NCBI GenBank assembly: GCA_964570935.1
Contig: CAZMZP010000050.1
Span: forward strand, 891-64,890
Direction of reading: 5' to 3'
From: an uncultured bacterium
Lineage (GTDB): Bacteria > Eisenbacteria > RBG-16-71-46 > JAFGJU01
Length of the DNA: 64,000 bases
The notes beneath the pieces are model-generated. The model ran no database searches. It had not been told where the DNA came from and worked only from the letters and a program-made list of their open reading frames with translations. Positions 8,770-64,000 of the stretch are shown one piece after another. Made by a program: the position numbers and the translations under genes. How positions within the stretch are numbered: the first letter of the stretch is position 1; each line of letters starts with the position of its first letter.

Positions 8770-8809
8770 CGAAAATCCCTCCTACCGAACTCGAGATGCG
8801 TCCATACGC

Positions 8810-9772
8810 CTAGGCTTTTACGGTAAGGCCGGCCAGGGTCCTCACTATGGTCACTACCGCCGGCCCGAGGATGACAACAAACAACGACGGAAATATGCAC
8901 AGCACCAGTGGGAACACCAGCTTCACCGGCGTTTTCGCCGCCGCCTCCTCCGCCCTCTGTCTTCTTCTCGTCCGCACCGTGTCGGCGTGCGTGCGCAGGG
9001 CCTGTGCCACGCTGGTGCCCAGCTTGTCGGTCTGCACGAGCATCGCCACCAGGGAGCTCAGTTCCTCCGCTCCCGTCCTTGTCGTCAGGTCCCGGAGCGC
9101 CTGCGCCCTGGGCTTACCCGCCTTGACCTCCTGCGTCACCTGCGCGAATTCACTGCTGAGAACGCTGCTCGTCAGCTTCATCTCGCTGGACACCCTGGCA
9201 ACGGCGGCGTCCAACCCCAGGCCCGCCTCCACGCACACGACCATTAGGTCCAGCGCGTCGGGCAGATGCCGGGTGATCTCCGCCTGCCGGCGCGAGGCCG
9301 CGTGCCGCAGCCAGTAGTCCGGCAGCAGGTATCCCCCGACGCCCACCAGGAGGCCCAGCAGCAGGATCAGGCCCGGTGAATGTCCGAGCCACGCGCCCAC
9401 CGGGATGTACAGCGCGAAAAGTATCATCGCCAGGAATATCTTGGCGCCCCGGTAGACCCTCAGGGCGTTGCTCTTGCGGTACCCGGCGTACGTAAGCAGC
9501 CTCTGTATCCTCGGCTCCGCTTTCTGTGCCTTTCCCGGCGCGAACCCTCCGACGAACTCCTTCACGGAGTCCGCGGCCGTGGACGACGCCTTCCTGGCCT
9601 TACCCAGCCACCTGCCGCGACGCCCCCCGGCCACCGGGACGACGTCGGTCAGACGGTCTATTCTCCTCTGCAGAGGGTCGGGTGCCCTGAACGCGAAGTG
9701 CAGCAGCAGGGCCGCGCACAAGCTCAGACTCAAGAAAACTAGCGCCATGATCACGGGCAAAGGTAGAAGCAT
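8810..9772 (-). CDS. tadC: Flp pilus assembly inner-membrane protein TadC (type II secretion system F family)
   Basis: 320 aa polytopic GspF-like protein; follows tadB with a 3-nt gap. Confidence 0.8.
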   Translation of the reverse strand: MLLPLPVIMALVFLSLSLCAALLLHFAFRAPDPLQRRIDRLTDVVPVAGGRRGRWLGKARKASSTAADSVKEFVGGFAPGKAQKAEPRIQRLLTYAGYRKSNALRVYRGAKIFLAMILFALYIPVGAWLGHSPGLILLLGLLVGVGGYLLPDYWLRHAASRRQAEITRHLPDALDLMVVCVEAGLGLDAAVARVSSEMKLTSSVLSSEFAQVTQEVKAGKPRAQALRDLTTRTGAEELSSLVAMLVQTDKLGTSVAQALRTHADTVRTRRRQRAEEAAAKTPVKLVFPLVLCIFPSLFVVILGPAVVTIVRTLAGLTVKA

Positions 9773-9775
9773 GTC

Positions 9776-10747
9776 CTAGACCTCTATGTTCACGATTTTA
9801 CGTATCCAGACGTACCCGATTACCATCAAGGTTCCAGCCACGCCCAGCATCAGCCGTCCGGTCGAGTCCTTGAAAAGGAACATGATGTAGCTCGGGTTGA
9901 TGAGCATGATGATGAGCCCCACTGTCACCGGCAGCAGCGCCAGCACTATCCCGGACAGCCGTGCGTCGGCGGTCAGAGACCGCATCTGGCCCAGGATCTT
10001 GAACCGCTCCCTGATTGTGTAGCTGATCTTCTCGAGGATCTCCGCCACGTTGCCGCCGGTCTCTCTCTGGATCACCATGGCAATGACGAAGAACCTCACG
10101 TCCATGCTGTCTATCCTGTCGGCCAGGTTCATCAGGGCCTCTTTGAAGCTGAGCCCCAGATTCTGTTCGTCGAAAGTCTCTTTGAACTCGGACGACACAG
10201 GGTCGGGCATCTCGTCCGCCACGAGCTGTATCGCGCCGGTGAATGCGTGGCCGGCCCTCAGAGCGCTGGTCATCAGGTCGAGGGCGTCCGGGAACTGGCT
10301 CACGAAAGACCTCACTCTCTTCCTCTTCCTCCGCACGACGTTGAGCGTCGGCAGGCAGCCCAGGGCGCCGCCGCCGACTATTGCGGATATCACGCTCCGG
10401 CCGATGAAGTAGCCGAGCCCGGAACCCGCAGCCACGAAGACCAGCGTGAACAGCAGGAGCTCGCCCACGCGCATGGGCGACTCAGCCTGCCTGAGCAGTC
10501 TGTCCAGCTTGTGCGCCAGCTTGACCTTGGACAATCCCTTGTGCAAAGCCGGGATCTGGCTCATGAGCTCGTCCCGCAGGATGCTGGCGGAGACCAAGGC
10601 CTCCCTGCCGTGTTCCTTGCTCAGGGCGCTCAGCCGTTTCCTCATCCATGCCGCGCGAGTCTCCGGCGAACCCCTCCCCGCGAGCCCCAATGAGAGAAAC
10701 AGGAATGCGACTGCGAGGAGTACCAGTACGGATACTACGATGAGCAA
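9776..10747 (-). CDS. tadB: Flp pilus assembly inner-membrane protein TadB (type II secretion system F family)
   Basis: 323 aa GspF-like platform protein directly downstream of the CpaF ATPase gene. Confidence 0.8.
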   Translation of the reverse strand: MLIVVSVLVLLAVAFLFLSLGLAGRGSPETRAAWMRKRLSALSKEHGREALVSASILRDELMSQIPALHKGLSKVKLAHKLDRLLRQAESPMRVGELLLFTLVFVAAGSGLGYFIGRSVISAIVGGGALGCLPTLNVVRRKRKRVRSFVSQFPDALDLMTSALRAGHAFTGAIQLVADEMPDPVSSEFKETFDEQNLGLSFKEALMNLADRIDSMDVRFFVIAMVIQRETGGNVAEILEKISYTIRERFKILGQMRSLTADARLSGIVLALLPVTVGLIIMLINPSYIMFLFKDSTGRLMLGVAGTLMVIGYVWIRKIVNIEV

Positions 10748-10783
10748 GTGCGTCTCCTCTCCCTGAAGATTACTCCGTGACCC

Positions 10784-12133
10784 CTAGACGTCGTCAAAGA
10801 TGCCCGGAGGAAGGTGAACTCCGGCCACGAAGAGCCTCTCGGCGAACTTGGGCCTTATGCCGGTGGGCTTGAACCTCCCCAGGACCGTGCCGTCCTCGGA
10901 CACTCCCAGACGTTCGAACACGAAGATGTCCTGCATGGTGACGACGTTGCCTTCCATGCCTACAATCTCAGCCACGTTCGTCACTCTTCTTCTTCCGTCA
11001 GTCAAACGGGCTATCTGGACTACCACGTTGAGCGCCGAAGCGATCTGCTCGCGGATGGCCTTCTCCGGGAGCTCCAGCCCGGCCATCAGAACCATGGTCT
11101 CGATACGACTCAGCGAATCGCGAGGCGTGTTCGCATGGACGGTCGTCATCGAACCGTCGTGGCCGGTGTTCATGGCCTGGAGCATGTCCAGTGCCTCGTC
11201 GCCTCTGACCTCTCCCACGATTATCCTGTCAGGCCGCATACGCAGGGCGTTCCTGACGAGGTCTCTCTGGGTGATGCGTCCCCTGCCCTCTATGTTCGGC
11301 GGCCGCGTCTCGAGCCTTACCACGTGCTCCTGCTGGAGCTGGAGCTCAGCCGCGTCCTCTATGGTCACCACTCTCTCCTCTCCGGGCACGAACCCGGACA
11401 ACACGTTCAGCAGAGTCGTCTTGCCCGCGCCGGTTCCGCCGGAGATGAGGATGTTGAGCTTCGCCTTGACGGCGCCCTTCAAGAGCTCCAGCATGGCCGG
11501 AGTCATGCTCTCGAAGGTCAACAGGTCGTTAGCGGTGAGCGGATTCGCCCCGAACCTTCGAATCGACAGCACCGGGCCGTCGATAGACAGCGGCGGGATG
11601 ATGGCATTCACTCGAGACCCGTCCGGGAGTCTCGCGTCCACCATTGGGGAGGACTCGTCCACTCTCCTTCCGACCGCGGCCACTATCCTGTCTATGATCT
11701 GCCTGACGTGGTTGTCGTCCTTGAACTTGACTCCCGTCAGCTCCAGCTTTCCGAACCTCTCGACGTACACCTGGTCGTGGCCGTTGACCAGGATGTCGGA
11801 GAGGGTCGGGTCCGCCAGAAGCGGCTCAATGGGGCCCAGCCCCAGAGTCTCGTGGACGACTTCCTCTGTGAGCTTCTCCCGGTCGGCCCTGCTCAGCGGA
11901 AGGGTCTCGCCCGCTATGATCGCCTCGAGCGCGAGCCGGACCTGCCCGCGGAGCTGGTCCTGCGGGATGGTGTCGATGGTCGCGAGGTCGAGCTTCTCGA
12001 TGAGCTTGTGATGCACTCTCGACTTCAGCTCCTGGTAGGCGTCCCTGGTCTCGGGCTCCGCCCCCCTGTACCCGAAGCGTTCCATCTTCACCTTCGGCGT
12101 CTGCTGACGCCCGAGTCTTTCGAAGAGTGCCAT
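10784..12133 (-). CDS. cpaF: Flp pilus assembly ATPase CpaF/TadA
   Basis: 449 aa; Walker [14 protein letters not shown]; type II/IV secretion NTPase motifs. Confidence 0.9.
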
Positions 12134-12136
12134 TCT

Positions 12137-13324
12137 CTACCTCCTCAGGAGCTTCGCCAGCGAGCGTTTCTTGGGGGCTTCCGCCTCGATCTCTTCCTCG
12201 GGGCCCATCCTGCACATTGCGTACGCCAGCTCGCGCAAATTCACCGTCACTGGCGACTGCGGCGCGGATTCGATCAGAGGCACCCCCGAATTGATGGAGT
12301 TGCTGACGCTCGCGTAGTCGTTCGGTATGCGCCAGAAAACGGGATACTCAAAGCTCTTCTCGAATTTCTCCACGACCACCGACTTGTTCGGTACGAACCG
12401 GTTGAGCAGGAGCTTCACTTTGTCACGGCCGTAGCCCAACCTCTGGAATATCTCTATGCACCTCTTCGAGTTTCTTATCGCCGGCAGCTCCAGGGCCGAC
12501 ACCAGGAAGATCGCGTCGGACAGGTCGAGGGTCTCCACGCATCTTTCGTCGAACGTGTGCGACGTGTCGACGATCACGTACTCGAACATCGAACGCAGCA
12601 ACCGCAGCACCTGGCCTATCTGTTCCGCCGTGATGGCCTCCGCCTCCTCGGCCTGCTGAGGCTCCGCCATGACGTACGCGCCGGACGAATGCTGGACCAT
12701 GTGCCCCCTGAGAAGAGTCTGGTCCAGTTTCTCGTAGCTCCGCGCCACGTCGGCGATGGTGTAGGTGGGCTGCACGTTGAGGAACATGGCCGCGTCGCCG
12801 AACTGGAGGTCAAGGTCCACGACCGCGGCCGACTTGCCGCAGGCCTTGGCCAGCATGACCGCCAGGTTCACCGCGAGCATCGTCGTGCCCAGCCCGCCCT
12901 TGTTGCTGAATATCGTGATTATCTCGCCCGCCACCGTGCCCTGCGTCTGGACCTTTCTCATCACCTTTCGGATGGCGGCGACGACCTCGTCCTGGTCCAG
13001 CGGGCGTTTGAGGAACTCTTGTATGCCGGACCGCATGGCCTTGAGTATCACGTCCGGCTTCGTCTCAGACGAGACGGCGAAGATAGACGCCTGCGGGTAC
13101 ACCTCCACGATCTTGGCCGCGGTCGCCAGGTGGTCCTCCGCGGGAGACGAGATTTCCAGGAACACGATGTGCGGCCTGAACTGCCTGACCAGGTTGACTC
13201 CGACGCGCAGGTCGTCCGACTCCGCGCGCACCTGAGCTCCGGGCAGCTCCCGCAGAATGTTCTTGAGCGAGTAGTGAACGTCCTTGTCGCTGTCGATTAT
13301 GACAATAGAGATTTCGTCCAGCAT
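12137..13324 (-). CDS. cpaE: Flp pilus assembly protein CpaE/TadZ (pseudo-receiver + MinD/ParA-like ATPase)
   Basis: 395 aa; N-terminal receiver-like fold with Glu (FLEIS) at the phospho-acceptor position; deviant Walker A SNKGGLGTT. Confidence 0.8.
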   Translation of the reverse strand: MLDEISIVIIDSDKDVHYSLKNILRELPGAQVRAESDDLRVGVNLVRQFRPHIVFLEISSPAEDHLATAAKIVEVYPQASIFAVSSETKPDVILKAMRSGIQEFLKRPLDQDEVVAAIRKVMRKVQTQGTVAGEIITIFSNKGGLGTTMLAVNLAVMLAKACGKSAAVVDLDLQFGDAAMFLNVQPTYTIADVARSYEKLDQTLLRGHMVQHSSGAYVMAEPQQAEEAEAITAEQIGQVLRLLRSMFEYVIVDTSHTFDERCVETLDLSDAIFLVSALELPAIRNSKRCIEIFQRLGYGRDKVKLLLNRFVPNKSVVVEKFEKSFEYPVFWRIPNDYASVSNSINSGVPLIESAPQSPVTVNLRELAYAMCRMGPEEEIEAEAPKKRSLAKLLRR

Positions 13325-13330
13325 ACTTGT

Positions 13331-14626
13331 CTATTCCACCATCTGGTATGACCACGTGAAGCTCTGGTTGCCGTCGCCGGGCTGGCTTCCCTTGACACAC
13401 GAAATGGGCGCCCGCGTAAGCCTGGCGGTTACGACGCTGTGCCTGTCAACCCCCTCTATGAAGAATGCCACTATCTTTGTCACGACGATAGTGTTCCCCC
13501 TCTCCTCCGTGAGTCTTCCGGACTCCGGCCACATTCTGGGGTCGAAGACAGGGACAAATATTATCCTGGGGCTCTCTCCTATGTTTCCGCCATCAGAGGA
13601 GTGGTCCACGTTGTCTACTTCTTCACTCCAGAACGCGTCGGGATCCTGCTCCAGGATGTCCTTGGTGCCCTGGACCGTGGGTCCGACCATGTTGCCCGGC
13701 TCGCTCTCCAGGGTGAACTCCTCATTTGGATCGATGACCGTCGGGTTGCACTTACTGATGTTTTCTCTATAAGCGGCGGCGCCGCGGCGGGCCTCGCCAT
13801 ATTCCTCAGGCCACGGCAGGACGATGGGATTGAAGAAGCTAGCAGCAGGTCTGGTTTCCTGTGCGCCGAGCTTAAGAAAGACCTGCATTCCCACATTTCC
13901 GTCCGGCGGCAAACTGGGGATGTAACCGGCCTCGTTCGCCTGCGACAACGCTCTGTCGTAGTGCTCGCTGTCGTAGACCCCGTTCCCGTTCCCGTCCGTG
14001 AACGTTTCGCCCGGATCGTAGAGTCTATTGCCGTTGGAGTCGGTGAACTTCTCGCCGTTCCACCTACCGTTGTTCTGCCACGACGATTTTCCGGTCGAGT
14101 ATCCGGGAATAGGGGTCGTGTCGTCCCAAAGATCAGGTATGGTCCAGGGCTTGACGCAGCATGCAGTCGAGCTCGGGGTCACGAGGAGGACCGCCCTGGC
14201 CGACACGTCGGCGAAGGGAATCCGCAAGATCTTGGCGAAGAAGAGCGGCAGGCCGTTGTCTCTTGACCGCAACTTGCGGGCATACACGGTGAGTCTCTTG
14301 TCGGCGATTATGATGTCTTCTGCCGGCACTATGTACACTGACTCGTCGTTGCCGGCCTTGTGCCTCCCAGCCATCTCGATCACTCTGTTGGCGACTTCGC
14401 TCGACTTGGTCGGCTCCTCCAGGATCATGGCGCCCGCCGCGGCCAGGACGCAGGCGTCAGCCGCGTTCTGGAGCTGCTGCTTGGTGACCATGATGTAGCC
14501 TATGTCCACGGCGAAGGCCGCAAGGGCCAGCATGGCTATGATGAGAAAACCTATGAGGGGCAACACGGCCCCCCGCTGCGAAAACAATAGAGTCACACCT
14601 TTACCAGACTGTCTCATTGCGCTCAC
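13331..14626 (-). CDS. TadG-like pilus-associated protein (Tad N-terminal pseudopilin-like domain)
   Basis: 431 aa; N-terminal TM plus VDIGYIMVTKQQLQNAADA motif typical of the TadE/TadG N-terminal domain; large extracytoplasmic C-terminal region. Confidence 0.7.
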   Translation of the reverse strand: MSAMRQSGKGVTLLFSQRGAVLPLIGFLIIAMLALAAFAVDIGYIMVTKQQLQNAADACVLAAAGAMILEEPTKSSEVANRVIEMAGRHKAGNDESVYIVPAEDIIIADKRLTVYARKLRSRDNGLPLFFAKILRIPFADVSARAVLLVTPSSTACCVKPWTIPDLWDDTTPIPGYSTGKSSWQNNGRWNGEKFTDSNGNRLYDPGETFTDGNGNGVYDSEHYDRALSQANEAGYIPSLPPDGNVGMQVFLKLGAQETRPAASFFNPIVLPWPEEYGEARRGAAAYRENISKCNPTVIDPNEEFTLESEPGNMVGPTVQGTKDILEQDPDAFWSEEVDNVDHSSDGGNIGESPRIIFVPVFDPRMWPESGRLTEERGNTIVVTKIVAFFIEGVDRHSVVTARLTRAPISCVKGSQPGDGNQSFTWSYQMVE

Positions 14627-15811
14627 CTACTCCTCTCCAGATGCCCTCCCGGTGCCCGGCCAGGCAGGCACATCTGATGCGCTGTACGAGCCCACGATCT
14701 TCGGCGTCACCAACAGCACCAGCTCGGTCTCGTTCTGCATGAAACTCGTGCTCTTGAACAGCAAACCGAGAATAGGGATGTCGCCGAGGATCGGGAACTT
14801 CGAAACACCCTTTGAATCCTCTCTCGTAATCAAACCGGCCACGACGAGCGTCTGGCCGTCCTTGAGCTCTACCGTGCTCTGGGCTCTTCTCGTACGAAGG
14901 GCCGGTATCGCATACCCGCCCAACACTATTCCGTTGTCCCAGTCGAGAGTGCTCACTTCGGGCTCCACCTTGAGGCTCACCACGCCCGAATCCACGACCG
15001 TGGGCGTAAACTTGAGCTGAACTCCGAATTCCTTCCACTCTATTGTCACGCTGTTTCCGCCGCCGCCGGTCTGGAGTATGGGAACCGGTATCTCGCCGCC
15101 GGCCAGAAACTCCGCCTGATGTCCGCTTATCGCAACGAGGGTGGGCTCGGCCAGCGTGTTGACGACACCCTTCTTCTCCAGTGCCTTCAAAGCCGCTTCG
15201 ACGCCGTATGACGGGTGCGCCAGAGAAAGGTACGTGGTCACGCCCGAACTCAGGGTGAGAGGGATGGTAGGCGGTGTCACCTGGCCGGCGAAGCTTCCCA
15301 CGACGGCCTCCTGGAAGTCCTCACCGAAGATTCTAGGATTGAGGTCCGTGCTCACGAAGTCGACGCCCAACTCCTTCATGGCCGTCCTGTTCACCTCGGC
15401 GAACCGGACTTTGAGCATCACCTGCTGAAACGACGTGTCGGTATGAACGACCAGGTTGTAGAAAGTGGGCCTTTCCTCGCTGTCCCATACGACCAGGCTG
15501 GTCGTGCCCGGAGCCTTTCCGTTCACCAGGAGCTGCTTGGGAGAGGCCACCATGACGTCGGCTATGGCCGGGTCCGTCACCGAAACGCGCGTGATGTTCT
15601 CAGTGAACGTGATGACCTGTGATTTACCTACGATGACCTCCATCTTGAGGAGTGCGCCCGCGGGGACGACCGCGGCCGAAACGTCGCGAGCCAGACACGG
15701 TGTCAAAAGCAGCAGGCTGGACACAACCAGCCAGGCAAGACGTCTTCTGCTAAGCATGATCGCTGTTCTCCTCCATTCCCCGGCTTCCCTGGGAGGAAAG
15801 CTGCGGGTCAA
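14627..15811 (-). CDS. cpaC: Flp pilus secretin CpaC/RcpA
   Basis: 394 aa; signal peptide; secretin domain (TLVAISGHQAEFLAGGEIPVP, ETELVLLVTPKIV). Confidence 0.85.
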   Translation of the reverse strand: MTRSFPPREAGEWRRTAIMLSRRRLAWLVVSSLLLLTPCLARDVSAAVVPAGALLKMEVIVGKSQVITFTENITRVSVTDPAIADVMVASPKQLLVNGKAPGTTSLVVWDSEERPTFYNLVVHTDTSFQQVMLKVRFAEVNRTAMKELGVDFVSTDLNPRIFGEDFQEAVVGSFAGQVTPPTIPLTLSSGVTTYLSLAHPSYGVEAALKALEKKGVVNTLAEPTLVAISGHQAEFLAGGEIPVPILQTGGGGNSVTIEWKEFGVQLKFTPTVVDSGVVSLKVEPEVSTLDWDNGIVLGGYAIPALRTRRAQSTVELKDGQTLVVAGLITREDSKGVSKFPILGDIPILGLLFKSTSFMQNETELVLLVTPKIVGSYSASDVPAWPGTGRASGEE

Positions 15812-15845
15812 AACCGCACAAGATCAGCGCATGAACTGAGTATGT

Positions 15846-16727
15846 CTATCTCGATTGAGACTTGTCTTCAAATTTCTCCTCTGTCCTCTTCGAGCCCCGG
15901 ATCACCTCGACACCGATGGTCTTCTTCTCCGGCTTCGCGGCGGGCTTCACTTCCGCCGTGGTCCTCGCGGACGGCCTCGGCCGCGTGACTCTCACCGGCG
16001 CCGCCACTCTCTGAACCGGCTCGCTCTTAGAAAGCATCTCGGCGATGGTAGTGCCCTTCGTGCCTGCTGAATCCGAGTCCGCGGGGTTCCTCAGGATCAG
16101 GTTGATCTCGCCCTCGTGAGCGCACAGAGCAAGTTTCTCCGCCTCGCTCGGGGTCACCAGGAGCGTCACCGCGGTCGACTTGAGGGGTCTTCCCTCGGTG
16201 TCCTCGATCTTCTGGTCGACGGCCAGCACAGTCAGGTTTTGAAGTACTACCTTTCCCACCTGCTCTCTGCTCAGCTCAGGTCTTATCGTCACTACTAAAT
16301 CGATCTTGGTCTCGGGCAGCACGAAGCCGGCTACCCCGGACCAGACGTTGACGGGCACGGTCATGGCCCTCATTCCCTCGGGTATCAGTATGGCCAGCCC
16401 CCTGTTCATGCCGATGGGAACCAGCTTTGTCTCGAGGAGGGCTTCGCCCGCCACGACCGGCGACTTGACGACTCTGCCGTACAGATCCTGAGGCGACGTG
16501 GAGGCTCCCGCGGGGACTATCTCAACCGGCCAGCCGACGGCCTCGACGTTCGTCTCGTCCAGGACGCTGCCGAAGGGAAGGTCCTTGATGGCCACCACTA
16601 CCGGCTGCTCTGCGATCTTCTTCTCACGGATCATCTTGTCGTACTGGGCAAGGTAGCGATAAATCGCGACCGCTGCCAGGAGCCCGAAAACGACGGCAAG
16701 AATCACAACAACCCTGATTCTGGTCAC
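15846..16727 (-). CDS. cpaB: Flp pilus assembly protein CpaB/RcpC
   Basis: 293 aa; N-terminal TM anchor; SAF/CpaB-type domain; Ala/Pro/Lys-rich C-terminal tail. Confidence 0.8.
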   Translation of the reverse strand: MTRIRVVVILAVVFGLLAAVAIYRYLAQYDKMIREKKIAEQPVVVAIKDLPFGSVLDETNVEAVGWPVEIVPAGASTSPQDLYGRVVKSPVVAGEALLETKLVPIGMNRGLAILIPEGMRAMTVPVNVWSGVAGFVLPETKIDLVVTIRPELSREQVGKVVLQNLTVLAVDQKIEDTEGRPLKSTAVTLLVTPSEAEKLALCAHEGEINLILRNPADSDSAGTKGTTIAEMLSKSEPVQRVAAPVRVTRPRPSARTTAEVKPAAKPEKKTIGVEVIRGSKRTEEKFEDKSQSR

Positions 16728-16749
16728 TTGAAAAACCTCCGTCTCAAGT

Positions 16750-17163
16750 TCAGATTTCCCGACGCATGCTGCAGGAAGCTCTCAGGGGCAGTTCGTCCAA
16801 TCTCGGGAATAGATGCGCAAAAGAGGTGTGGAACGCAACGATGACGTTGACTGTGACGGGCACCCCTATGGACGGAGTGCCTTCAAGAACCACGTTCACC
16901 TGGATGTCGTCGTCAGGGATGTGGGAATCGTAGAGGACCTCCCTGACCTTCGTCTCCACGGTACCCAGGTTGTCTTCCACGTCGGGAACTATTGCTGCGT
17001 AGCGGGCCCCGACTCTCGCGGCGCCGTTGGCGACGCCCAGAAGCATCCACGCTCTGGAGAACTCAGCCATCGCGATGATCACCAGAAAAAGCATCATCGC
17101 GACTAGAGCGAACTCGACTACTGCCGCGCCTTTGTTAGATTGTATTCTTCGCACATGTCTCAT
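16750..17163 (-). CDS. tadE: TadE-like minor pilin/pseudopilin
   Basis: Start taken at MRHVRRIQSNKGAAVVEFALV (TadE N-terminal motif); the ORF-track extension to 17256 has no support. Confidence 0.65.
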   Translation of the reverse strand: MRHVRRIQSNKGAAVVEFALVAMMLFLVIIAMAEFSRAWMLLGVANGAARVGARYAAIVPDVEDNLGTVETKVREVLYDSHIPDDDIQVNVVLEGTPSIGVPVTVNVIVAFHTSFAHLFPRLDELPLRASCSMRREI

Positions 17164-17281
17164 CACATAACCAGCTTTCCTGATGTTGCAGCGCAGACCA
17201 CAGTGTCCCCCGGACGGGTTTCGGTCCTCTCGAACGGCCCGCCCGAGGGAATTCAACTGGGTTCGGACTGTGGTCTCAGCC

Positions 17282-17452
17282 TTACGGCGTTGCGCCGAGT
17301 GCAGTCGCGATGGCCTCGAACACGCGGATAAGCTCGTCTCTGAGCAGGATTATCGCGGCGATGACGGCGATCGCAACCAGGGCTATGAGCAGCGCGTACT
17401 CGGTTATCGCAGCACCCTTGTTACCCTTGAACAGATTCTTCAGGAACCTCAT
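17282..17452 (-). CDS. flp: Flp family type IVb pilin
   Basis: 56-aa ORF absent from the ORF track: MRFLKNLFKGNKGAAITEYALLIALVAIAVIAAIILLRDELIRVFEAIATALGATP; conserved G/xxxxEY processing motif and hydrophobic core; strong SD AAAGGAGGA 8 nt upstream; heads the tad operon. Confidence 0.75.
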   Translation of the reverse strand: MRFLKNLFKGNKGAAITEYALLIALVAIAVIAAIILLRDELIRVFEAIATALGATP

Positions 17453-17552
17453 TTCTCCTGTCCTCCTTTCACACGGCCTCTAACACTTAACTAATCGGCA
17501 GCAAAACCTTCACTCCTTACGTCTTTTTCTGACAACACCTCCTTGTGCGAAC

Positions 17553-17575
17553 CGCAATCACGCCTTGGGATTGCG
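17553..17575 (-). promoter_or_regulatory. perfect inverted repeat CGCAATC-N9-GATTGCG in the flp leader
   Basis: 7-bp perfect palindrome arms seen directly; shares the GCAATC/GATTGC half-site with the palindrome at 62185-62204. Confidence 0.3.
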
Positions 17576-17682
17576 TTCCCGTGGTTGCCGCCCGCACACT
17601 ATTGTAGCGGGCGAACCGCTGTCAAGTTAATTATGCCCTCCTTCGGTTTGCCGTGGCGCGACTGTCTTCGCGGGACCCAAAA

Positions 17683-17698
17683 AGCAAACCCTATGCCA
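17683..17698 (-). promoter_or_regulatory. candidate sigma-54 (-24/-12) promoter upstream of flp
   Basis: Minus strand reads TGGCATAGGGTTTGCT versus consensus TGGCACG-N4-TTGCW; GG and GC elements correctly spaced; about 230 nt upstream of the flp ATG. Confidence 0.35.
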
Positions 17699-17943
17699 CG
17701 GCCGCGCTTTCCAGAGCCGATTTTCTAACTGATTTGAGGGTAATGTGTTGCAGGCAACGGACGGCCGCCATTGATCTCTCAAAAACCCGCCTCAGCCTCT
17801 GTTTAGCGCGGCATTTCTGTCGCACTAGAGGACAATTATGCCCTGGCGGCTCTTGATGTGCTCGCGGAATTCGAGCGGTTTCGGCGGTCGTATCTTCTTC
17901 AAGGTCAGCGAATCACACCACCACGAGCCGCCGGGCGCGGTTC

Positions 17944-23598: not shown

Positions 23599-24714
23599 CT
23601 ACTCCAACAGCTCTTCGCACACGTCGTGCGTGCTGCCGCAGGCAGGCCGGGCTGCGCGCGCCTCTTCCGTGGCCCGCCGTCCGGCGCCCACGACCCTGTT
23701 CCTGCCGGCCCTCTTTGCGCTGAACAGCGCGCCGTCCGCCGACTCCAGCAGAGCTCCGATGGTCTTGCCGTCTTCGGGATAGGTCGCGGCGCCTATGCTG
23801 CAGCTTATCTCGCCGCAACGCACCTCGGGGAAAATCTGAGTGACCACCGCAGACCGGATCCTCTCCGCAAGCACGAGGGCCCCTTCCTTCGGCGTCTGCG
23901 GCAGTATTATCAGAAACTCGTCTCCCCCGTACTTGGCCACGGTGTCGATGCTTCTTGCCGTCACCTTGATGACGGCCGCCAGCTGCTTCAACACCGTGCT
24001 GCCCTTGAGATGTCCAAACTTGTCATTATAATCTTTCAGGTGGTCCACGTCCAGCATTAGAACGGAGAAGAACTGGCGGAACCGCGACGCCCTGTCCAGC
24101 TCCTTGTGCAGAGCGTCCTTGAGGAACCGAAAATTGAACACCTGCGTGAGCTCGTCGGTGACGGCCTGTTCCTGCACCTGCGCGTACAGCTTGGCGCTTT
24201 CGATCGCCATTGCGGTCTGATTGGCCAGCACGCTCAGAACGCCCAGTTCGGCTTCGCTGAACGTGGCGGTGCCCAGCTTGTTCACCGCTATCAGGACTCC
24301 CAGCACATTCTCCCGCGCCTTCAGCGGCGCGCAGATGCAGCCGCCGGTGCTGGGTGCTCGCGGCCCCTCGAGCTCCGGCCTCGGCTCGTCCGACACCCGG
24401 GGTATCAGGACGGCCTTACCCTCCATCATCACCCACCACGCAATGCCCCTCTCCCCGGTGCGCTCGTAGCGCTCCATCGGCGCTTCCGCCCCGTCCGCCC
24501 TTCTCCGCTTCGCGTACTTCACGACGACCCCGTTTTCCAAGGTGATCAGGAAGACCGCTTCGGCCCCCAGCACCTCCAGGGCGCAGGAAAGCACCTTGGA
24601 AAAGGTCATTCTCCTGTCCAAGCCGGCAGTAATCAGACCCGTGATTTCCACCAGGGTGTTAAGGAATTTTTCTTCACGAAGCACAGAACTCATCCTTCGT
24701 GCCCCTAACCGCAT
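23599..24714 (-). CDS. GAF domain diguanylate cyclase (GGDEF)
   Basis: 371 aa; N-terminal GAF; intact GGDEF (KYGGDEFLIIL) with RxxD I-site (RSID) 5 residues upstream. Confidence 0.85.
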   Translation of the reverse strand: MRLGARRMSSVLREEKFLNTLVEITGLITAGLDRRMTFSKVLSCALEVLGAEAVFLITLENGVVVKYAKRRRADGAEAPMERYERTGERGIAWWVMMEGKAVLIPRVSDEPRPELEGPRAPSTGGCICAPLKARENVLGVLIAVNKLGTATFSEAELGVLSVLANQTAMAIESAKLYAQVQEQAVTDELTQVFNFRFLKDALHKELDRASRFRQFFSVLMLDVDHLKDYNDKFGHLKGSTVLKQLAAVIKVTARSIDTVAKYGGDEFLIILPQTPKEGALVLAERIRSAVVTQIFPEVRCGEISCSIGAATYPEDGKTIGALLESADGALFSAKRAGRNRVVGAGRRATEEARAARPACGSTHDVCEELLE

Positions 24715-24769
24715 GAAAATGCACCGTTCCGCACTGAACCGACGTTGAGAAAAGCAAGTTCTATGCCAG

Positions 24770-38142: not shown

Positions 38143-38466
38143 CTATGACCACCACCTCTAAAGCAGACCTGAAATGAAAATCCCCACCGGTCTGCCGTGT
38201 GACAGAGACTTTTGAACCTGGACATGCCCAGGTGGGCGCCAGACTCCTGGTCGTCGCGCCCCCGCCGGTGCGGGTCCCGCTGTTACCCGAAGAACAGGCT
38301 CCCTCAGAACAACTGTTGGCTCAAAAACGCCCACATCAACACGTGCACGGTAGGGATTTTCAGTTTACGGCTTTAGCCCTACTTCTGTTCGATTCCGGCA
38401 GATCTACTTGCTCTTGCGATTCCTCCTTCCCTGAAGCTCTGCCTAGAATTGGCGGAAGCTGGTCTG

Positions 38467-58800: not shown

Positions 58801-59562
58801 TCAGCGTATGGTCACTGTCGCGGTCTGGTCAAACGGGTTCGTTCTGATGGCAAGCGAGAAGAGATACGCATAGTTCGCCTTGAGATACTTCATGTAAGAG
58901 AGCCATTCCAGGGCCAGCCGAGTGTAAAGTCTCTTAACGTCCCCGTCCAAGTGGCTGCAGTCACCCTCGGTCAGGCACGACACGTCTTCCCTCTGCGCCA
59001 GCTCTTCCGTCAGATGGAACACGGCTCGCAGAAGCTCGGTGAAGCTCTCGTGTTCGAGCACACTCGGATTCTGCAGAAGCCCAAGCAGGAACTCACGCTT
59101 CTCGAGCAGAAAGCCCCTCAGATGGCTCAGGTCAACGCGCGCCACGTCGACGTTGTAGTCGTAGCTCCTCAGACGCCCCGCGACCTCGGTGAACTCCCTG
59201 TCCGACCACGAGCCCGACACGATCAGGTGTCCTCTTATCACGTTCAGGTTCGGGTCGAAGTCAGACAGATAGGTCAGCAACCCGGTTCCCACTTCGCTGA
59301 AGAACGCCCCTATGACCATGCTGAGCTTCTCAAGCCTCTGGCTCTTCTCGCGCTGCCTGAGCAGGGCGTGGATTATCAGGGTCACCAGCAGCACTTCCAC
59401 GAACACAAACGCGAAGTCCTGGAAGATGTAGTAGAAGATGCTCCGCGCGTCCCTGAAGATGAGATACTGTATCCCATACACCAGCGCGGAGAGCGCCACC
59501 AGCACGACGCCGAGATAACCCTGCCAGCTCAAACGTTTCATCGCGGTCCGCATCCGCATCAC
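58801..59562 (-). CDS. hypothetical membrane protein (two N-terminal TM helices + cytoplasmic domain)
   Basis: 253 aa ORF with protein-like composition; downstream of the GAF/degenerate-GGDEF gene. Confidence 0.4.
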   Translation of the reverse strand: MMRMRTAMKRLSWQGYLGVVLVALSALVYGIQYLIFRDARSIFYYIFQDFAFVFVEVLLVTLIIHALLRQREKSQRLEKLSMVIGAFFSEVGTGLLTYLSDFDPNLNVIRGHLIVSGSWSDREFTEVAGRLRSYDYNVDVARVDLSHLRGFLLEKREFLLGLLQNPSVLEHESFTELLRAVFHLTEELAQREDVSCLTEGDCSHLDGDVKRLYTRLALEWLSYMKYLKANYAYLFSLAIRTNPFDQTATVTIR

Positions 59563-59703: not shown

Positions 59704-61995
59704 CTACGATGCGGTCTGTCCGTCCACGCTTCCGGTGATGAGGAGAGAGGCTTTTCTCAGGTCGCAGATGTCCTTGGGCCAGTATACCTGGACTGCCTTG
59801 AACTGGAGCTCCGGCGCCGGAGAGACGTATCTCACCGCGCCCAGCCGCCGCAGAAGGTCGTCTACTCTCCGGAGTATGGCGCCCCCCTCTCTGGGGGTCT
59901 GGGGGGAAATCACTACGAAGGTCGCCTCGCCGGTTCTGCCGACGATGTCCACCTCCCGGATGGTCTTCCTGAGTCCGCCGGAGAACTCCTCCAGGAACGC
60001 GGCTCTCCACTGGTCTCCGAGCCTCTGGAAGGCCCCGGTGAGTCCTTCGACTTCAAACACAGTGATGCAGAACCCTATCCCGTACCGGTCGTACCGCTTG
60101 GATTCCTCGTTTATTCTGGTGAGCAGCGTCTGCGCGCCGAGCAGGCCCGTTTCCCGGTCGGTCTCTCCGTACTGCTGGGCCTGCATGGACACGAACGCCC
60201 GTTCCAGGCCGTGAGCCGAGTATCCGCAGAAAGACCTGAAGAGCTCGCTCTCGGTCTCGTTGAACGACGGCGCGCCGCCCTCCTTCAGCCGGAGCAGGAC
60301 GCAGGCGCCCAGGCACCTCGTGCCGGCTCTCAACGGCCCCGCCAAGAACGACGTGACTCCCAGTCTTTCAAGTTCGAGGTTCAGGGTCTCGTCGGCCGCC
60401 TCACCCGAGATGCAGTTCATGTCCTTGACGCATTCGGCCATGAGAAGCTCCTTGGCTTTGGTCAGCCTCTCCGTCTCCTCCATGCCCTCGGTGCCGCCCA
60501 GTTTGTCCACCGACCAGCTTCTGCCGTCCTCGCACGCCACCAGACACGCGTCCGCCTTGAGGATCCTGACTCCCTCACTGGCTATGATCCTGACCACTTC
60601 CTCGACCTTCTGCGCGGACATCAGAGACGAGGCCACCCGGTTCAGCTCCGACAGCGCTTCCGCCTGTTCCCGCAGGCCGAGCATCGAGACTTCCCTGCCC
60701 AGCTCCTTTCCTATGAACCGCGCCACTCTGTCGAAGGCGCCCAGATAAGCTTCCAACTCGACGTTGCTGACGCGCACTGAGTCGAACACCAGCAGACCGT
60801 GCCAGCGGTCGGCCTTCATCGGGACGCATATGATGCCGAGCTCTTCGCCCTCCATCGAGGGCGCGACAATCCCGCCGGGAAGCAGCACCTGCGCCTTCCC
60901 GGACGTCAGGGCTCGGCCCAGGAATCCCTTTCCGCCGAATATGACTCCGGGAAGCGCCGGGTCGGCCACCTTGACCGACGTCGCGTACAGGACCAACCGT
61001 CCGTCCCTCCACTTGTCCGGCAGGTAGACGTAGCAGTCCCCTTCCACCCTCTCGGCCAGTGACGCGGCCAGGAACTGCACCTTCTCCGGGAACGAAACCT
61101 CCCTGATGAGCGCGTCCTCGGCGGCCTCTCTCAGAGTGAATTCGAGCGTCTTGTTCGTCACCGCGCTGTACTGCAGCGCCCTTTGCAGCGTCTCCGTCAC
61201 TCGCTCGGCCAGCTTCTCCAGCAGATGGAGGTCCTTGGCGTGGAATCTCTGCGGGTCTCTGATGCTGCTCACGTTGAGCACGCCGATGGTGCGGCCGCCC
61301 GCGACCAGAGGAACACACATCGCCGCTTTGACTTCACTCCTATCCCTTCCGGGCTTGAGAAGCTCGTTACCGGGTTCACCGGAAATGAGCATTGGTTTTC
61401 CGTCCCTGGCCACCCTGCCCGCAATCCCCTCTCCCATACTCTGCCGGGTGGAGACCACGGTCTCTCTACTCAGCCCCTGCGCGACCGCAATGCGCAGGTC
61501 CTTGCCCTTCTCGTCCAGCAGCATTATGGACCCGCACTGAGCTCCCGTGCATTCGATGGCAAGCTCCAGGATCCATCTCAGCAGCTTCTGCCTGTCTAGG
61601 GCAAGACTCAGGCTGTCGGCCAGTTTGCCCAGTACGTTGGATTCCTCCTCCCCCAGCGCCGGCTCGCAAACGGCCTGCGGCTCGGCCGCCGGTTTGGCCC
61701 CCAGGGCTTCTGCGGGTGTCAGAACCATGACGCCCGGGCCCAGCACTTCAACCAGAAGGGGTCTCGAATCGGGGTCGCCCAGGACCACTGCGTCCAGTTC
61801 CACCGAACCCAGCGCGGGCACGCTTGTCGTGGTAGGAAGCCTCATTATCTCACCGACCTTCAAAGCCACGGACGCCGCGTCCTGATCAGCAATCAGAACC
61901 AGCTCCCAGCGGCCGTCCTTGACGAGTGCCGGGATGAGGTCGAGGTCGGCCTCTTTGAGGCCGACTATGGCGAGTCTCTTTTTGTTATTGTCCAT
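59704..61995 (-). CDS. multi-GAF protein with degenerate GGDEF domain retaining the RxxD I-site (candidate c-di-GMP receptor)
   Basis: Start MDNNKKRLAIVG at 61995; the track start at 62049 would bury a sigma-54 promoter in the CDS; three GAF domains; C-terminal GGDEF-like domain with REVDIVGRTGEATF (compare PleD RESDVVARYGGEEF). Confidence 0.75.
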   Translation of the reverse strand: MDNNKKRLAIVGLKEADLDLIPALVKDGRWELVLIADQDAASVALKVGEIMRLPTTTSVPALGSVELDAVVLGDPDSRPLLVEVLGPGVMVLTPAEALGAKPAAEPQAVCEPALGEEESNVLGKLADSLSLALDRQKLLRWILELAIECTGAQCGSIMLLDEKGKDLRIAVAQGLSRETVVSTRQSMGEGIAGRVARDGKPMLISGEPGNELLKPGRDRSEVKAAMCVPLVAGGRTIGVLNVSSIRDPQRFHAKDLHLLEKLAERVTETLQRALQYSAVTNKTLEFTLREAAEDALIREVSFPEKVQFLAASLAERVEGDCYVYLPDKWRDGRLVLYATSVKVADPALPGVIFGGKGFLGRALTSGKAQVLLPGGIVAPSMEGEELGIICVPMKADRWHGLLVFDSVRVSNVELEAYLGAFDRVARFIGKELGREVSMLGLREQAEALSELNRVASSLMSAQKVEEVVRIIASEGVRILKADACLVACEDGRSWSVDKLGGTEGMEETERLTKAKELLMAECVKDMNCISGEAADETLNLELERLGVTSFLAGPLRAGTRCLGACVLLRLKEGGAPSFNETESELFRSFCGYSAHGLERAFVSMQAQQYGETDRETGLLGAQTLLTRINEESKRYDRYGIGFCITVFEVEGLTGAFQRLGDQWRAAFLEEFSGGLRKTIREVDIVGRTGEATFVVISPQTPREGGAILRRVDDLLRRLGAVRYVSPAPELQFKAVQVYWPKDICDLRKASLLITGSVDGQTAS

Positions 61996-62037
61996 TACCA
62001 AGCGCCCAAGAGGGACTTTGACACAAGCTCCCCACTG

Positions 62038-62053
62038 AGCAACACCCATGCCA
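62038..62053 (-). promoter_or_regulatory. candidate sigma-54 (-24/-12) promoter
   Basis: Minus strand reads TGGCATGGGTGTTGCT versus consensus TGGCACGG-N4-TTGCW: one mismatch, exact spacing; 44 nt upstream of the ATG at 61995. Confidence 0.45.
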
Positions 62054-62184
62054 AATCCCGGACAGACGTGCCGCGGATTGCCCCCGACTCGTACACCATA
62101 ACTCGCTCGCTTCCAGCTTGATACGGGAGTAGGCGGGAACTCGGCCGGCCTCCGGCAGTCCGGCTGTCGAGAGCAGGTTTGCAG

Positions 62185-62204
62185 AATGCAATCCCGATTG
62201 CATT
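62185..62204 (-). promoter_or_regulatory. perfect palindrome AATGCAATC-CC-GATTGCATT, candidate enhancer/UAS
   Basis: 9-bp perfect inverted repeat; about 135-150 bp upstream of the -24 element, the typical distance for an enhancer-binding-protein site. Confidence 0.35.
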
Positions 62205-62307: not shown

Positions 62308-64000
62308 TCAGCGCCGGATCAGCAGGCTCCCTGTCCCGACGTTACCCGCGCCGTCTATCGCACGCAGTCCGACCGTGTGTTCGCCGGTCGTCAGAGTGTC
62401 CAGCATTATCGAGAAGTCTTCGGTGCGCGAATCCAGCAATCCGTCCGCCGCCTGCGCCAGTGTCCAGCCGCCGCTGTCCAACGAGTAGTGCAGTTCCGTG
62501 ACTGCGCTCAACGCGTCGGACAGAGTGCCGGTGACCGTCGTACCCTGCGCCGTGTCTTCGCTCTTCAGGCGCGACACGACTGGAGCGGTGTTGTCCACGT
62601 CGAACGGAACGCCGACTGCTTCCGAAGTGAGCGCCTCCGAAGGCAGGTTTTTCGGCAGGTCGGTTACCTCCACACGAAGCAGGTATGAGCCGTCAGGCCA
62701 GTCAGACGTGTTCCACACGAACACCGTCTCCTCGATTGCGAGGTCGATGAGTTTCCACTTCTCTTCCTCGGGGCGCCTGTAGCTGACCGTAAACTCCAGC
62801 TTGTCGCCGTTCGGGTCCGAGGCTTCCCACGTCGCCGTTCTGAGCGTTCTCGCCCACGCCGCTTCCTCGACGGCCCTTTCCACATCGTCCTTGACCACTG
62901 AATACTCGACCCTGAGGCCTCCGGGAAGCGTCTGCGACACCCTTTCCGGCATTCTGTCGATGCCGCCGTCCGCGAACTGGACGCCCTGCGGGTAGACCCT
63001 GACGCCGGTCACCACGGGCGCCAAGTTCTTCTTCGCGAACGCCAGGCTTATCTTCCTCAGGCCGGGCGTCGACGCCCCCGCGCCCGACGTCAACCTGGCC
63101 TTCCACTGCACGAACCTCCCCGGCGGGATGTCCGCGACGGCGCCGCTCCTGGCCACGTCTTCGCTCCAGTCGCTCCAGGTCCGATTCGGCGTTTCCGAAT
63201 TGCCGCTCCTCAACTGCAGTTGCAGCGAGGCGCCGCGAGGCACGTCCGCGTTCCACGACAGCGCTCCCCAGCGCGAGACACCGCCCGTGTCGAACGCCTT
63301 CGAAACGAGCGTGCCGGATCGCGAAGCCTTCGGTCCGGCGGAGAACACGCGGGCGTTGTTGCCGGTGCTGAAGACCAGTCGGCCTTCGCTGTTCATCATG
63401 TCCAGCACCTGCGAGTCGGCCACCCTGTCCACGAGCTCGGTTTGACTTTGGCTCAGGCAAAGGATGCGTCCCTCGTCGCCCGTGCCCATCAGCAGGCTGT
63501 CGCCGGCGGCGGCCCAGAGACAGTAGACCGTCGAGCGCCCGGAGGTCCAAACCTTGGACGCGGTGCCGTCGTCCGTAATACGGTAGACGCTCGAACCCTG
63601 CTTTCGTTCATCCTGGTCTTCGCCGGACTGAGAAGGCGCGTCATCCAGGGCAGGTCCGGCCACGGTCCTGGTGCGCGCAATGGCCGCGGCATACGTGACT
63701 CCGCCGTCCACGCAGGCAACGTCCCTCACCTCCTGCTCGTCGCAGTCGAACAGCACTCGACCCTTACCGTTCGCGTCGATGGCGAGCACGAGCCCGGTGC
63801 CCTCCGTGCCGACGACCAGCCGGCCCTTCGCGTACTGGGCGCACATCACGTGTCTCTCGCCCGTCTCGTAGAACACCTCGCCCTTCCCGTTCGGACGGAT
63901 CTTGTAGACCTTCCCTCCGTCGCCGGTCCCGGCGTAAAGGTTCCCGCTATCGTCGAACGCGAGGCACCAGACGTAACTTTCACCGGTTTCGAAGAACACA
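62308..64000 (-). CDS. secreted beta-propeller / fibronectin-III-like repeat protein (5'-partial, continues beyond window)
   Basis: ORF open to the window edge; repeated blade-like segments (VFYETGE.HV.C...GTGDGG); C-terminal Ig/FN3-like segments. Confidence 0.6.
   Translation of the reverse strand, partial: VFFETGESYVWCLAFDDSGNLYAGTGDGGKVYKIRPNGKGEVFYETGERHVMCAQYAKGRLVVGTEGTGLVLAIDANGKGRVLFDCDEQEVRDVACVDGGVTYAAAIARTRTVAGPALDDAPSQSGEDQDERKQGSSVYRITDDGTASKVWTSGRSTVYCLWAAAGDSLLMGTGDEGRILCLSQSQTELVDRVADSQVLDMMNSEGRLVFSTGNNARVFSAGPKASRSGTLVSKAFDTGGVSRWGALSWNADVPRGASLQLQLRSGNSETPNRTWSDWSEDVARSGAVADIPPGRFVQWKARLTSGAGASTPGLRKISLAFAKKNLAPVVTGVRVYPQGVQFADGGIDRMPERVSQTLPGGLRVEYSVVKDDVERAVEEAAWARTLRTATWEASDPNGDKLEFTVSYRRPEEEKWKLIDLAIEETVFVWNTSDWPDGSYLLRVEVTDLPKNLPSEALTSEAVGVPFDVDNTAPVVSRLKSEDTAQGTTVTGTLSDALSAVTELHYSLDSGGWTLAQAADGLLDSRTEDFSIMLDTLTTGEHTVGLRAIDGAGNVGTGSLLIRR

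Follow-up and report, generated by a model that had tools for sequence, protein, structure and literature searches.

What becomes of a GGDEF domain once its active site is lost, and can the protein that carries it still respond to cyclic di-GMP (c-di-GMP)? This question is raised by a minus-strand gene in a 64-kb stretch of DNA from an uncultured member of the Eisenbacteria (contig CAZMZP010000050.1 of assembly GCA_964570935.1; "the window" below means this whole stretch, to which all coordinates refer). The gene encodes a protein in which three GAF domains precede a GGDEF-derived domain that has lost its GG(D/E)EF loop and keeps the RxxD motif of the product-binding inhibitory site (I-site). 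A first-pass annotation had put it forward as a candidate c-di-GMP receptor. In our view, too, the protein is probably a soluble receptor for c-di-GMP of the degenerate-GGDEF/I-site kind, represented by PelD, PopA, and SgmT, and sequence comparison lends strong support to such a role for the family to which it belongs. Four points were established directly by computation: the domain architecture, the loss of the catalytic residues, the conservation of RxxD across the family, and the presence upstream of the gene of a conserved sigma-54-type promoter motif. The gene itself is delimited as follows:

59704-61995, minus strand: coding sequence of a cytoplasmic protein (Rossmann-like domain, three GAF domains, degenerate GGDEF domain), defined by the open reading frame (ORF), the ortholog starts, and the sigma-54 box

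The 763-residue product (N terminus MDNNKKRL) is soluble, with no transmembrane (TM)-like segment in its hydropathy profile (highest Kyte-Doolittle window 1.56).

Is the C-terminal domain derived from GGDEF at all? The Pfam GGDEF profile (PF00990) scores 26.0 bits against the whole protein and 29.8 bits against the isolated domain, above its gathering score of 23.8, with the match limited to profile positions 3 to 111 of 161. Among solved cyclases, phmmer retrieves SiaD (7e6g, E 6e-9) together with 3ign and 6d9m. In an AlphaFold2 model computed with the ortholog alignment as input, residues 610-755 show the order of secondary structure elements expected for a GGDEF fold following a helical stalk, and a Foldseek search with the model leads to the bacteriophytochrome-linked cyclase IsPadC (see below). 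The proposed GGDEF ancestry is hence upheld. Within this domain, the following features matter for the argument:

59731-60171, minus strand: degenerate GGDEF domain, residues 609-755, with catalytic and substrate-binding residues lost and the C-terminal helix truncated (Pfam, SiaD match, 15-domain comparison)
59917-59931, minus strand: GEATF, residues G689-E-A-T-F693, at the former GG(D/E)EF position (alignments to 7e6g, 3ign, 6d9m, and 15 canonical domains)
59947-59958, minus strand: RxxD I-site motif, R680-E-V-D683 (translation and family alignments)
59866-59868, minus strand: R710, opposite the first Arg in the AERIR helix of canonical domains, which is the position of PelD R402 (15-domain alignment)

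Whether the domain could still be catalytic was assessed by comparing 43 C-terminal domains of the family with 15 canonical GGDEF domains, among them that of the window's own cyclase. The motifs DxLTGLxNRR, DxDxFKxxND, GH..GD, GG[DE]EF, and SxG and the terminal AD.ALY.AK..G helix are lost. In the protein studied here, GAQ stands in place of NRR and FEVEGLT in place of DxDxFK, ND..GH..GD is absent, and the chain stops before the AK..G.N helix. What is kept is the structural E..R..R helix and RxxD. The GG(D/E)EF loop, the metal-binding Asp, the guanine-binding Asn/Asp, and the helix with the phosphate-binding Lys/Arg that mark an active diguanylate cyclase are thus all missing. The domain is predicted to be unable to make c-di-GMP because the residues that bind GTP, metal, and base are gone along with the GG(D/E)EF loop. 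The first-pass annotation had called the domain catalytically dead from the loss of GG(D/E)EF; the loss in fact extends to every conserved substrate and metal motif. Its statement that the pentapeptide is replaced also stands, but its reading of the replacement as TGEAT is one residue out of register and should be GEATF.

The labels carried by relatives point the other way: many members (P0232-P0242, P0109, and P0245-P0251 in our profile search) are annotated by the Joint Genome Institute (JGI) as "diguanylate cyclase (GGDEF)-like protein", and together with the Pfam GGDEF match this annotation could be taken to indicate a still-active cyclase with an unusual active-site motif. We regard this as extremely improbable, as all catalytic and substrate signatures are absent and not GG(D/E)EF alone, the C-terminal phosphate-binding helix is truncated, and the pentapeptide is hypervariable, with 35 different variants at the former GGDEF position among 42 family representatives. 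The single GGEEF among the 42 comes from an ordinary cyclase that lacks the N-terminal module. Because the catalytic motifs are so completely lost, the JGI label is misleading; elsewhere in public databases, the family is labeled "GAF domain-containing protein" or "diguanylate cyclase-like".

The drift of the active site stands beside a nearly unchanged I-site motif. With the corrected register, the sequence reads REVD-IVGRT-GEATF, so that RxxD lies at the canonical spacing of five residues from the former GG(D/E)EF, exactly as had been claimed. R680 and D683 are invariant in 19 sequences that include relatives at 26% identity. In 42 full-length family sequences, the two residues are 95% conserved, and in the family-model alignment 41 of 42 diverse representatives of 50% identity clusters hold both. 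RxxD persists even where the pentapeptide has become unrecognizable (P0023, P0026, and P0032). Within the GGDEF-derived domain, only nine columns are at least 90% conserved, and R680 and D683 are two of them. Since both residues are kept in 41 of the 42 diverse representatives, the tetrapeptide is evidently not there by chance.

The I-site of PelD offers a guide to what a complete site would require: c-di-GMP binding by PelD needs R367, D370, and R402, the last of which is described as "absolutely required" (PMC8461298). R710, which aligns with R402, is present in all Eisenbacteria orthologs and aligns exactly in 25 of the 42 family representatives. We take its position to be that of PleD R390.

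Conservation of this kind could also arise without any nucleotide. The degenerate domain might be a purely structural or dimerization module attached to a GAF-based sensor of some other ligand, with R680 and D683 maintained because folding or an intramolecular salt bridge requires them. LapD is an example of a degenerate GGDEF domain that does not bind, and several observations weigh against a receptor function and mostly in the direction of such a module. GAF1, and not the GGDEF-like domain, is the most conserved part of the family (52 versus nine columns at or above 90%), so that c-di-GMP is perhaps a secondary input. E631, R634, and R637 are conserved as strongly as RxxD and are found in active cyclases as well, which makes the conservation partly structural. 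Two family members (L026 and L031 in our locus numbering) have KNLV instead of RxxD, and the site is therefore dispensable in some lineages. In the Thermodesulfobacteriota branch, the third Arg lies about four residues earlier, and the full I-site is thus not proven family-wide. Finally, an ORF for a PATAN-domain protein, the conserved neighbor of the family in other clades (see below), was not found by a six-frame search with a hidden Markov model (HMM) of 29 such neighbors in the window and in L001, L002, L003/L006, L007, and L008, a scan that left L058-L061 and L063 outside its range.

Nevertheless, RxxD is not needed for the GGDEF fold, and many active cyclases lack it. Here it is retained in nearly all representatives while the surroundings of the active site drift freely, and the third I-site Arg is also kept throughout the Eisenbacteria clade. 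For a motif that the fold can do without and that persists while the active site drifts, the best explanation is selection for binding of a ligand at the I-site, and we consider a purely structural role unlikely.

If a ligand binds, it need not be c-di-GMP. The retained site might instead accept pGpG, cyclic GMP-AMP (cGAMP), cyclic di-AMP (c-di-AMP), (p)ppGpp, or GTP, and there are known precedents for the binding of GTP (Caulobacter PdeA type) or ATP (GdpP/YybT type) by degenerate GGDEF domains. These two nucleotides use the active-site half of the domain, however, which here lacks the guanine-binding Asn/Asp, the metal-binding Asp, and the phosphate-binding Lys/Arg. The combination of RxxD with the Arg that completes the triad is specifically a c-di-GMP I-site, as is well established for PleD and WspR and was reported for PelD (PMC8461298). 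A different nucleotide at this site hence seems rather unlikely to us, and c-di-GMP remains our preferred ligand.

Under a c-di-GMP receptor function, the protein could work as follows. R680 and D683 of RxxD, together with R710 on the next helix, would form the retained allosteric product-binding I-site, to which c-di-GMP may bind, probably in the form of the intercalated dimer seen in PelD, PleD, and WspR. By analogy with tandem-GAF proteins and IsPadC, the protein may dimerize in parallel along the long helices between its modules, and nucleotide binding at the C-terminal end could rearrange this helical spine and the N-terminal modules. Because an enzymatic or DNA-binding output domain is absent, the output would be a protein-protein interaction. 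The very highly conserved GAF1 probably takes a second, small-molecule input, such that c-di-GMP would be integrated with another signal.

How is the rest of the protein built? Five modules can be distinguished: a Rossmann-like N-terminal domain, three GAF domains, and the GGDEF-derived domain. The AlphaFold2 model (mean predicted local distance difference test score, pLDDT, of 78) separates all five, with an alpha/beta domain at residues 1-98, alpha/beta units at 116-296, 302-460, and 464-608, each of which terminates in a long helix, and the C-terminal domain at 610-755. The four modules in front of the GGDEF-derived domain are:

61702-61995, minus strand: Rossmann-like alpha/beta domain, residues 1-98, with a Gfo/Idh/MocA NAD(P)-binding fold (fold comparison)
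61108-61641, minus strand: GAF1, residues 119-296, including its long C-terminal helix (Pfam GAF_2, 102.8 bits; GAF matches in the PDB)
60616-61107, minus strand: middle, divergent GAF-like domain, residues 297-460 (hhalign, AlphaFold2 model, Foldseek)
60172-60615, minus strand: GAF3, residues 461-608, whose final helix runs into the GGDEF-like domain (Pfam, hhalign)

The count of three GAF domains given by the first-pass annotation is borne out. GAF1 and GAF3 pass Pfam thresholds, GAF3 with 29.1 bits for GAF_3 and 28.3 bits for GAF and with a 97.4% hhalign match to GAF1. The middle unit gave no match in a Pfam search of that unit, and its assignment comes from hhalign and fold: its profile matches that of GAF1 at 94.5% probability (E 7.5e-8 over 116 columns, with negative controls at 0.1 to 0.2%), and it adopts a GAF-like alpha/beta fold in the model. 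The 52 columns of GAF1 that are at least 90% conserved are conserved across phyla. NKFDE is the signature of cyclic nucleotide-binding GAF domains; read from the sequence, GAF1 departs from it, with V following N241 and F251-x3-D255 followed by L. Foldseek against the PDB returned IsPadC as the top match (6et7/5llw, E 1e-18, about 710 aligned columns), followed by the tandem-GAF proteins PDE2/5/6 and CyaB2.

The first-pass annotation overlooked the separate domain at residues 1-98. Its NAD(P)-binding fold is recognized in the model, its identity being resolved by fold alone. By sequence, these residues have no Pfam match in the protein studied here, and a profile search against PDB sequences yielded only chance matches to Cas9; a sub-threshold Pfam match to Gfo/Idh/MocA (E 0.025) was obtained for the sister-branch version only. 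The residues G12, D27, D37, and E49 are conserved, and the GxGxxG loop is degenerate (VGLKEAD, or GANKEG in the sister branch). This loop and the catalytic C-terminal alpha/beta domain that define Gfo/Idh/MocA proteins are both missing; a disordered linker follows instead and then GAF1.

How far does this architecture extend? The family spans Eisenbacteria, Thermodesulfobacteriota, and Myxococcota and is uncharacterized. A scan of species-representative genomes found about 30 metagenome-assembled genomes of Thermodesulfobacteriota ("Deltaproteobacteria") that encode proteins of the same architecture (765 to 815 residues), which are about 27% identical to the target over residues 1-693/720. When 1.84 billion cluster representatives were searched exhaustively with a profile, about 40 further architecture-level relatives emerged, whose named sources include a second Eisenbacteria clade and Myxococcota. 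The 3,372 profile matches at E ≤ 1e-30 do not represent the family size, as multi-GAF giants dominate them and only some 40 of the best 150 are related at the level of architecture. These giants (P0083, P0090, P0095, P0125, and others), proteins of 2,000 to 3,800 residues with 10 to 18 GAF-like repeats, outrank family members in the full-length profile search. The protein appears to be a member of a new multi-phylum family within a well-established receptor kind and is not an ortholog of PelD, PopA, SgmT, CdgA, PssE, or YdaK.

Which proteins could receive the signal? For the sister clades, gene order offers an answer. In all 29 assessable Thermodesulfobacteriota loci (drawn from L009-L039 and L004), a stand-alone DUF4388/PATAN gene of about 135 codons (E 4e-24) lies immediately 5' of the family gene on the same strand, with gaps mostly between -28 and +20 nucleotides (nt). 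In a third clade, a response regulator that joins a receiver (REC) domain to PATAN lies upstream at a 15-nt gap (L062, 4141-4986). PATAN is a documented output domain that binds the type IV pilus motor PilB1/PilC (bioRxiv 10.1101/2021.06.11.447907), and it is found fused to ComFB, another receptor family for cyclic dinucleotides (PMC12448109). We infer that the partner in the sister clades is almost certainly the PATAN-domain protein encoded directly upstream.

In the Eisenbacteria, the surroundings differ from those of the sister clades. The genes that flank the target in the window encode an S55-like peptidase and a beta-propeller protein and include mutL and miaA. In both Eisenbacteria clades, every locus with enough sequence has, upstream of the family gene, an S55-like (SpoIVB-type) peptidase gene and then one for a beta-propeller/Ig-like protein of about 720 residues. 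This pair is set off from the target by 200 to 310 nt that hold a promoter:

62308-63999, minus strand: S55-like peptidase/beta-propeller pair, running off the end of the window; also found at L001 1833-5779 and in L058, L059, L061, and L063

Downstream, the first-pass annotation had pointed to a 253-residue membrane protein, encoded at 58801-59562 on the minus strand, as a possible partner. The ORF is real: it encodes a two-TM protein with two hydrophobic segments, 64% identical to its copy in L001, and corresponds to MJ1433_N/MJ1433_C in precomputed Pfam data, families missing from the Pfam copy that we searched. Its start is probably at Met8 (59541), which would give 246 residues, because of the 64%-identical L001 ortholog. 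As a conserved partner it fails, since it adjoins the family gene in only 4 of 10 Eisenbacteria loci and is missing beside an 86%-identical ortholog (L008). One Eisenbacteria subclade instead has an unannotated gene of about 300 codons whose start lies at or overlaps the target's stop codon (L003 8424-9341, L058 8283-9182, and L061 8319-9209). This overlap suggests translational coupling to the target homolog, and the product shows no relationship to the membrane protein of the window (E 0.1). In a further clade, an M24 peptidase gene lies downstream of the homolog.

Where would the c-di-GMP come from? The enzyme encoded at 23599-24714 on the minus strand is, by Pfam and sequence, a canonical GAF-GGDEF cyclase (RSID-TVAKY-GGDEF), and it is followed by exopolysaccharide (EPS)-type genes for a tyrosine kinase-type ATPase, a UDP-glucose dehydrogenase, an epimerase, and a polysaccharide deacetylase. 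The earlier description of an active cyclase with its own I-site beside EPS genes is thus confirmed. Because this intact GAF-GGDEF cyclase is encoded in the same window, the organism is predicted to make c-di-GMP. The suggestion that cyclase and receptor form a signaling pair fares less well: the two genes are 35 kb apart, and the sole hint of a connection is that both have sigma-54-type matches upstream. No cyclase was found as a conserved neighbor of the family in any clade examined.

The same gene bears on a further alternative, in which the dead domain pairs with an active GGDEF domain and inhibits or scaffolds synthesis, possibly while cross-linked to it by c-di-GMP via the I-sites. GGDEF catalysis requires two domains to come together, the target and the window's cyclase share a GAF-helix-GGDEF geometry, and the only two matches to a relaxed sigma-54 pattern in the window precede precisely these two genes. 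The genomic separation just described argues against such a pairing, as does the identity of the conserved neighbor elsewhere, which is PATAN and not a cyclase. Moreover, a pseudo-enzyme of this kind leaves the conservation of RxxD unexplained unless c-di-GMP binding is assumed as well. We give it only a small chance and retain the interpretation of the protein as a receptor.

Expression of the target offers a second line of context. The ORF in its longest form is 59704-62049 on the minus strand. The start is placed at 61995 because 17 full-length orthologs (58 to 90% identity; every named one labeled Candidatus Eisenbacteria or Eiseniibacteriota) align there, each starting at a Met equivalent to 61995, and because the upstream ATG lies inside a conserved promoter element. 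We accordingly dropped a start at the ATG of 62049, which forms part of the conserved sigma-54 -24 box; the orthologs begin MDxxKK. The elements upstream of this and two other loci are:

62038-62054, minus strand: sigma-54-type promoter TTGGCATGGGTGTTGCT (GG-N10-GC), 59 nt 5' of the start codon; exact and unique match in the window to TGGCAYG-N4-TTGCW
62187-62202, no strand assigned: perfect palindrome of 16 bp, TGCAAT-N4-ATTGCA, after which the coding strand reads TTCTGCAA; about 207 nt 5' of the start and about 150 nt beyond the sigma-54 element
24753-24769, minus strand: relaxed sigma-54 match CTGGCATAGAACTTGCT, about 40 nt 5' of the cyclase ATG (pattern search)
17683-17698, minus strand: sigma-54-like site with one mismatch, at the head of a Tad/Flp operon (pattern search)

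An element of the type found in the window occurs at -58 to -61 in all nine Eisenbacteria loci examined, as a conserved block inside an otherwise about 60%-identical spacer. As a motif, it has the -24 GG and -12 GC of sigma-54 promoters at TGGCAC-N5-TTGC spacing, it lies upstream, and it is conserved in orthologs, all of which suggests sigma-54-dependent transcription of the target. The relaxed pattern has no matches in the 64-kb window beyond those before the target and the cyclase, so that the cyclase and candidate receptor may possibly be coregulated via sigma-54-type sites. Three sigma-54-like matches are not very unusual by count (5 of 100 shuffles reach three); the sites appear credible because of their positions and orientation and not because of their number. 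The palindrome is conserved in the window, L008, and L060, is weaker in L001 and L059, and may be a site for an enhancer-binding protein; it is unique in the window, although by count one occurrence does not exceed chance. As it occurs upstream of the target only, an enhancer site common to the three sigma-54-like promoters was rejected. A search of the 5' spacer against Rfam (E ≤ 1) gave no riboswitch or known RNA, the only match being a spurious small RNA inside the coding sequence.

The third of these sites heads a complete Tad/Flp (type IVc) pilus operon at about 8800-17700 on the minus strand, with genes for Flp pilin, a TadE-like protein, RcpC/CpaB, secretin, a TadG-like protein, a REC-ParA-type TadZ/CpaE, the TadA/CpaF ATPase, and TadB. 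The Flp pilin (17282-17452, minus strand) has a textbook G/AAITEY motif. Just downstream of the tad locus lie genes for an NtrC-type sigma-54 activator (REC-AAA+-HTH_8; 3107-4564, minus strand) and an adjoining PAS histidine kinase (4557-6518, minus strand), both of them candidates for activating one of the sigma-54-like promoters. The window as a whole is chromosomal, at about 63% GC, with the housekeeping genes pheT, thrS, dxs, RNase Y, recN, mutL, and miaA. It also holds a 6S RNA gene (38177-38359, minus strand; 64.3 bits against a gathering score of 46.4) and six minus-strand tRNA genes (27316, 46066, 46306, 48491, 51002, and 55806).

These strands can be drawn into a wider and speculative picture, which we think is unlikely to hold as a whole: the family might be a c-di-GMP-gated adaptor that controls pilus machinery, in which the GGDEF remnant senses c-di-GMP, GAF1 and perhaps the Rossmann-like domain sense a metabolite, and a PATAN-type partner receives the signal. 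In the present organism, the gene might then belong to an RpoN surface-attachment regulon together with the Tad/Flp and cyclase-EPS operons.

What does the locus add? The finding is sound and will not surprise specialists; more interesting as leads are the linkage to PATAN and the setting of sigma-54-like sites, Tad genes, and EPS genes. In many bacteria, the cyclases that make c-di-GMP far outnumber the known receptors, and each credible receptor family narrows this gap. The present one occurs in at least three phyla of which hardly any members have been cultured or studied genetically. Its signature, RxxD in 41 of 42 representatives alongside 35 variants of the active-site pentapeptide, amounts to a clean, testable prediction and a rule for reannotation. 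The strict PATAN adjacency and the conserved sigma-54 promoter provide entry points to the output side, which is the unknown part for most degenerate-GGDEF receptors.

Which of the known systems does the protein resemble most? Among c-di-GMP receptors, Pseudomonas aeruginosa PelD shares a GAF domain directly before a catalytically dead GGDEF domain and an RxxD motif completed by a third Arg on the next helix (R367, D370, and R402 in PelD; R680, D683, and R710 here). In both, the helical linker is predicted to dimerize, and the output of PelD is a conformational change in a protein complex (PMC8461298). Unlike the target, PelD has four N-terminal TM helices and a single GAF domain, and its gene is part of the pel operon, whereas the protein described here is soluble, combines a Rossmann-like domain with three GAF domains, and lies outside a polysaccharide operon. 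The N-terminal TM helices and pelA-G operon that define the PelD family are thus lacking, and the only sequence similarity to PelD, in the GAF region, falls short of significance (E 0.19).

Reuse of a dead GGDEF domain as a c-di-GMP sensor via RxxD is also shared with PopA, SgmT, CdgA, PssE, and YdaK. PopA of Caulobacter is an I-site receptor with a degenerate GGDEF domain, and SgmT (Myxococcus), CdgA (Bdellovibrio), PssE (Listeria), and YdaK (Bacillus) are reportedly degenerate-GGDEF I-site receptors of c-di-GMP as well. They differ in the domains that accompany the GGDEF remnant (REC-REC, histidine kinase, TM), none of the five has the Rossmann-like plus triple-GAF arrangement, and sequence comparison linked none of them to the target except through generic GGDEF or GAF domains. 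From Gfo/Idh/MocA oxidoreductases, the target differs in its degenerate glycine-rich loop and in lacking their catalytic C-terminal domain.

On the output side, the sister clades of the family recall the ComFB-PATAN fusions and PatA-type (PATAN-REC) regulators, which couple a receptor for cyclic dinucleotides to PATAN as the output module. Unlike in the fusions, the coupling in the family consists of gene adjacency, seen in Thermodesulfobacteriota and one other clade and not found in the Eisenbacteria loci scanned. The best overall structural match remains IsPadC (5llw, 6et7), which likewise strings three PAS/GAF-type modules on long helices ahead of a terminal GGDEF domain. By analogy, this likeness suggests a parallel dimer with a signaling helical spine. 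IsPadC differs in being an active, light-regulated cyclase with a bilin chromophore, whereas the GGDEF domain of the target is dead, and the signal flow that we propose for the target would include an input from its C-terminal end.

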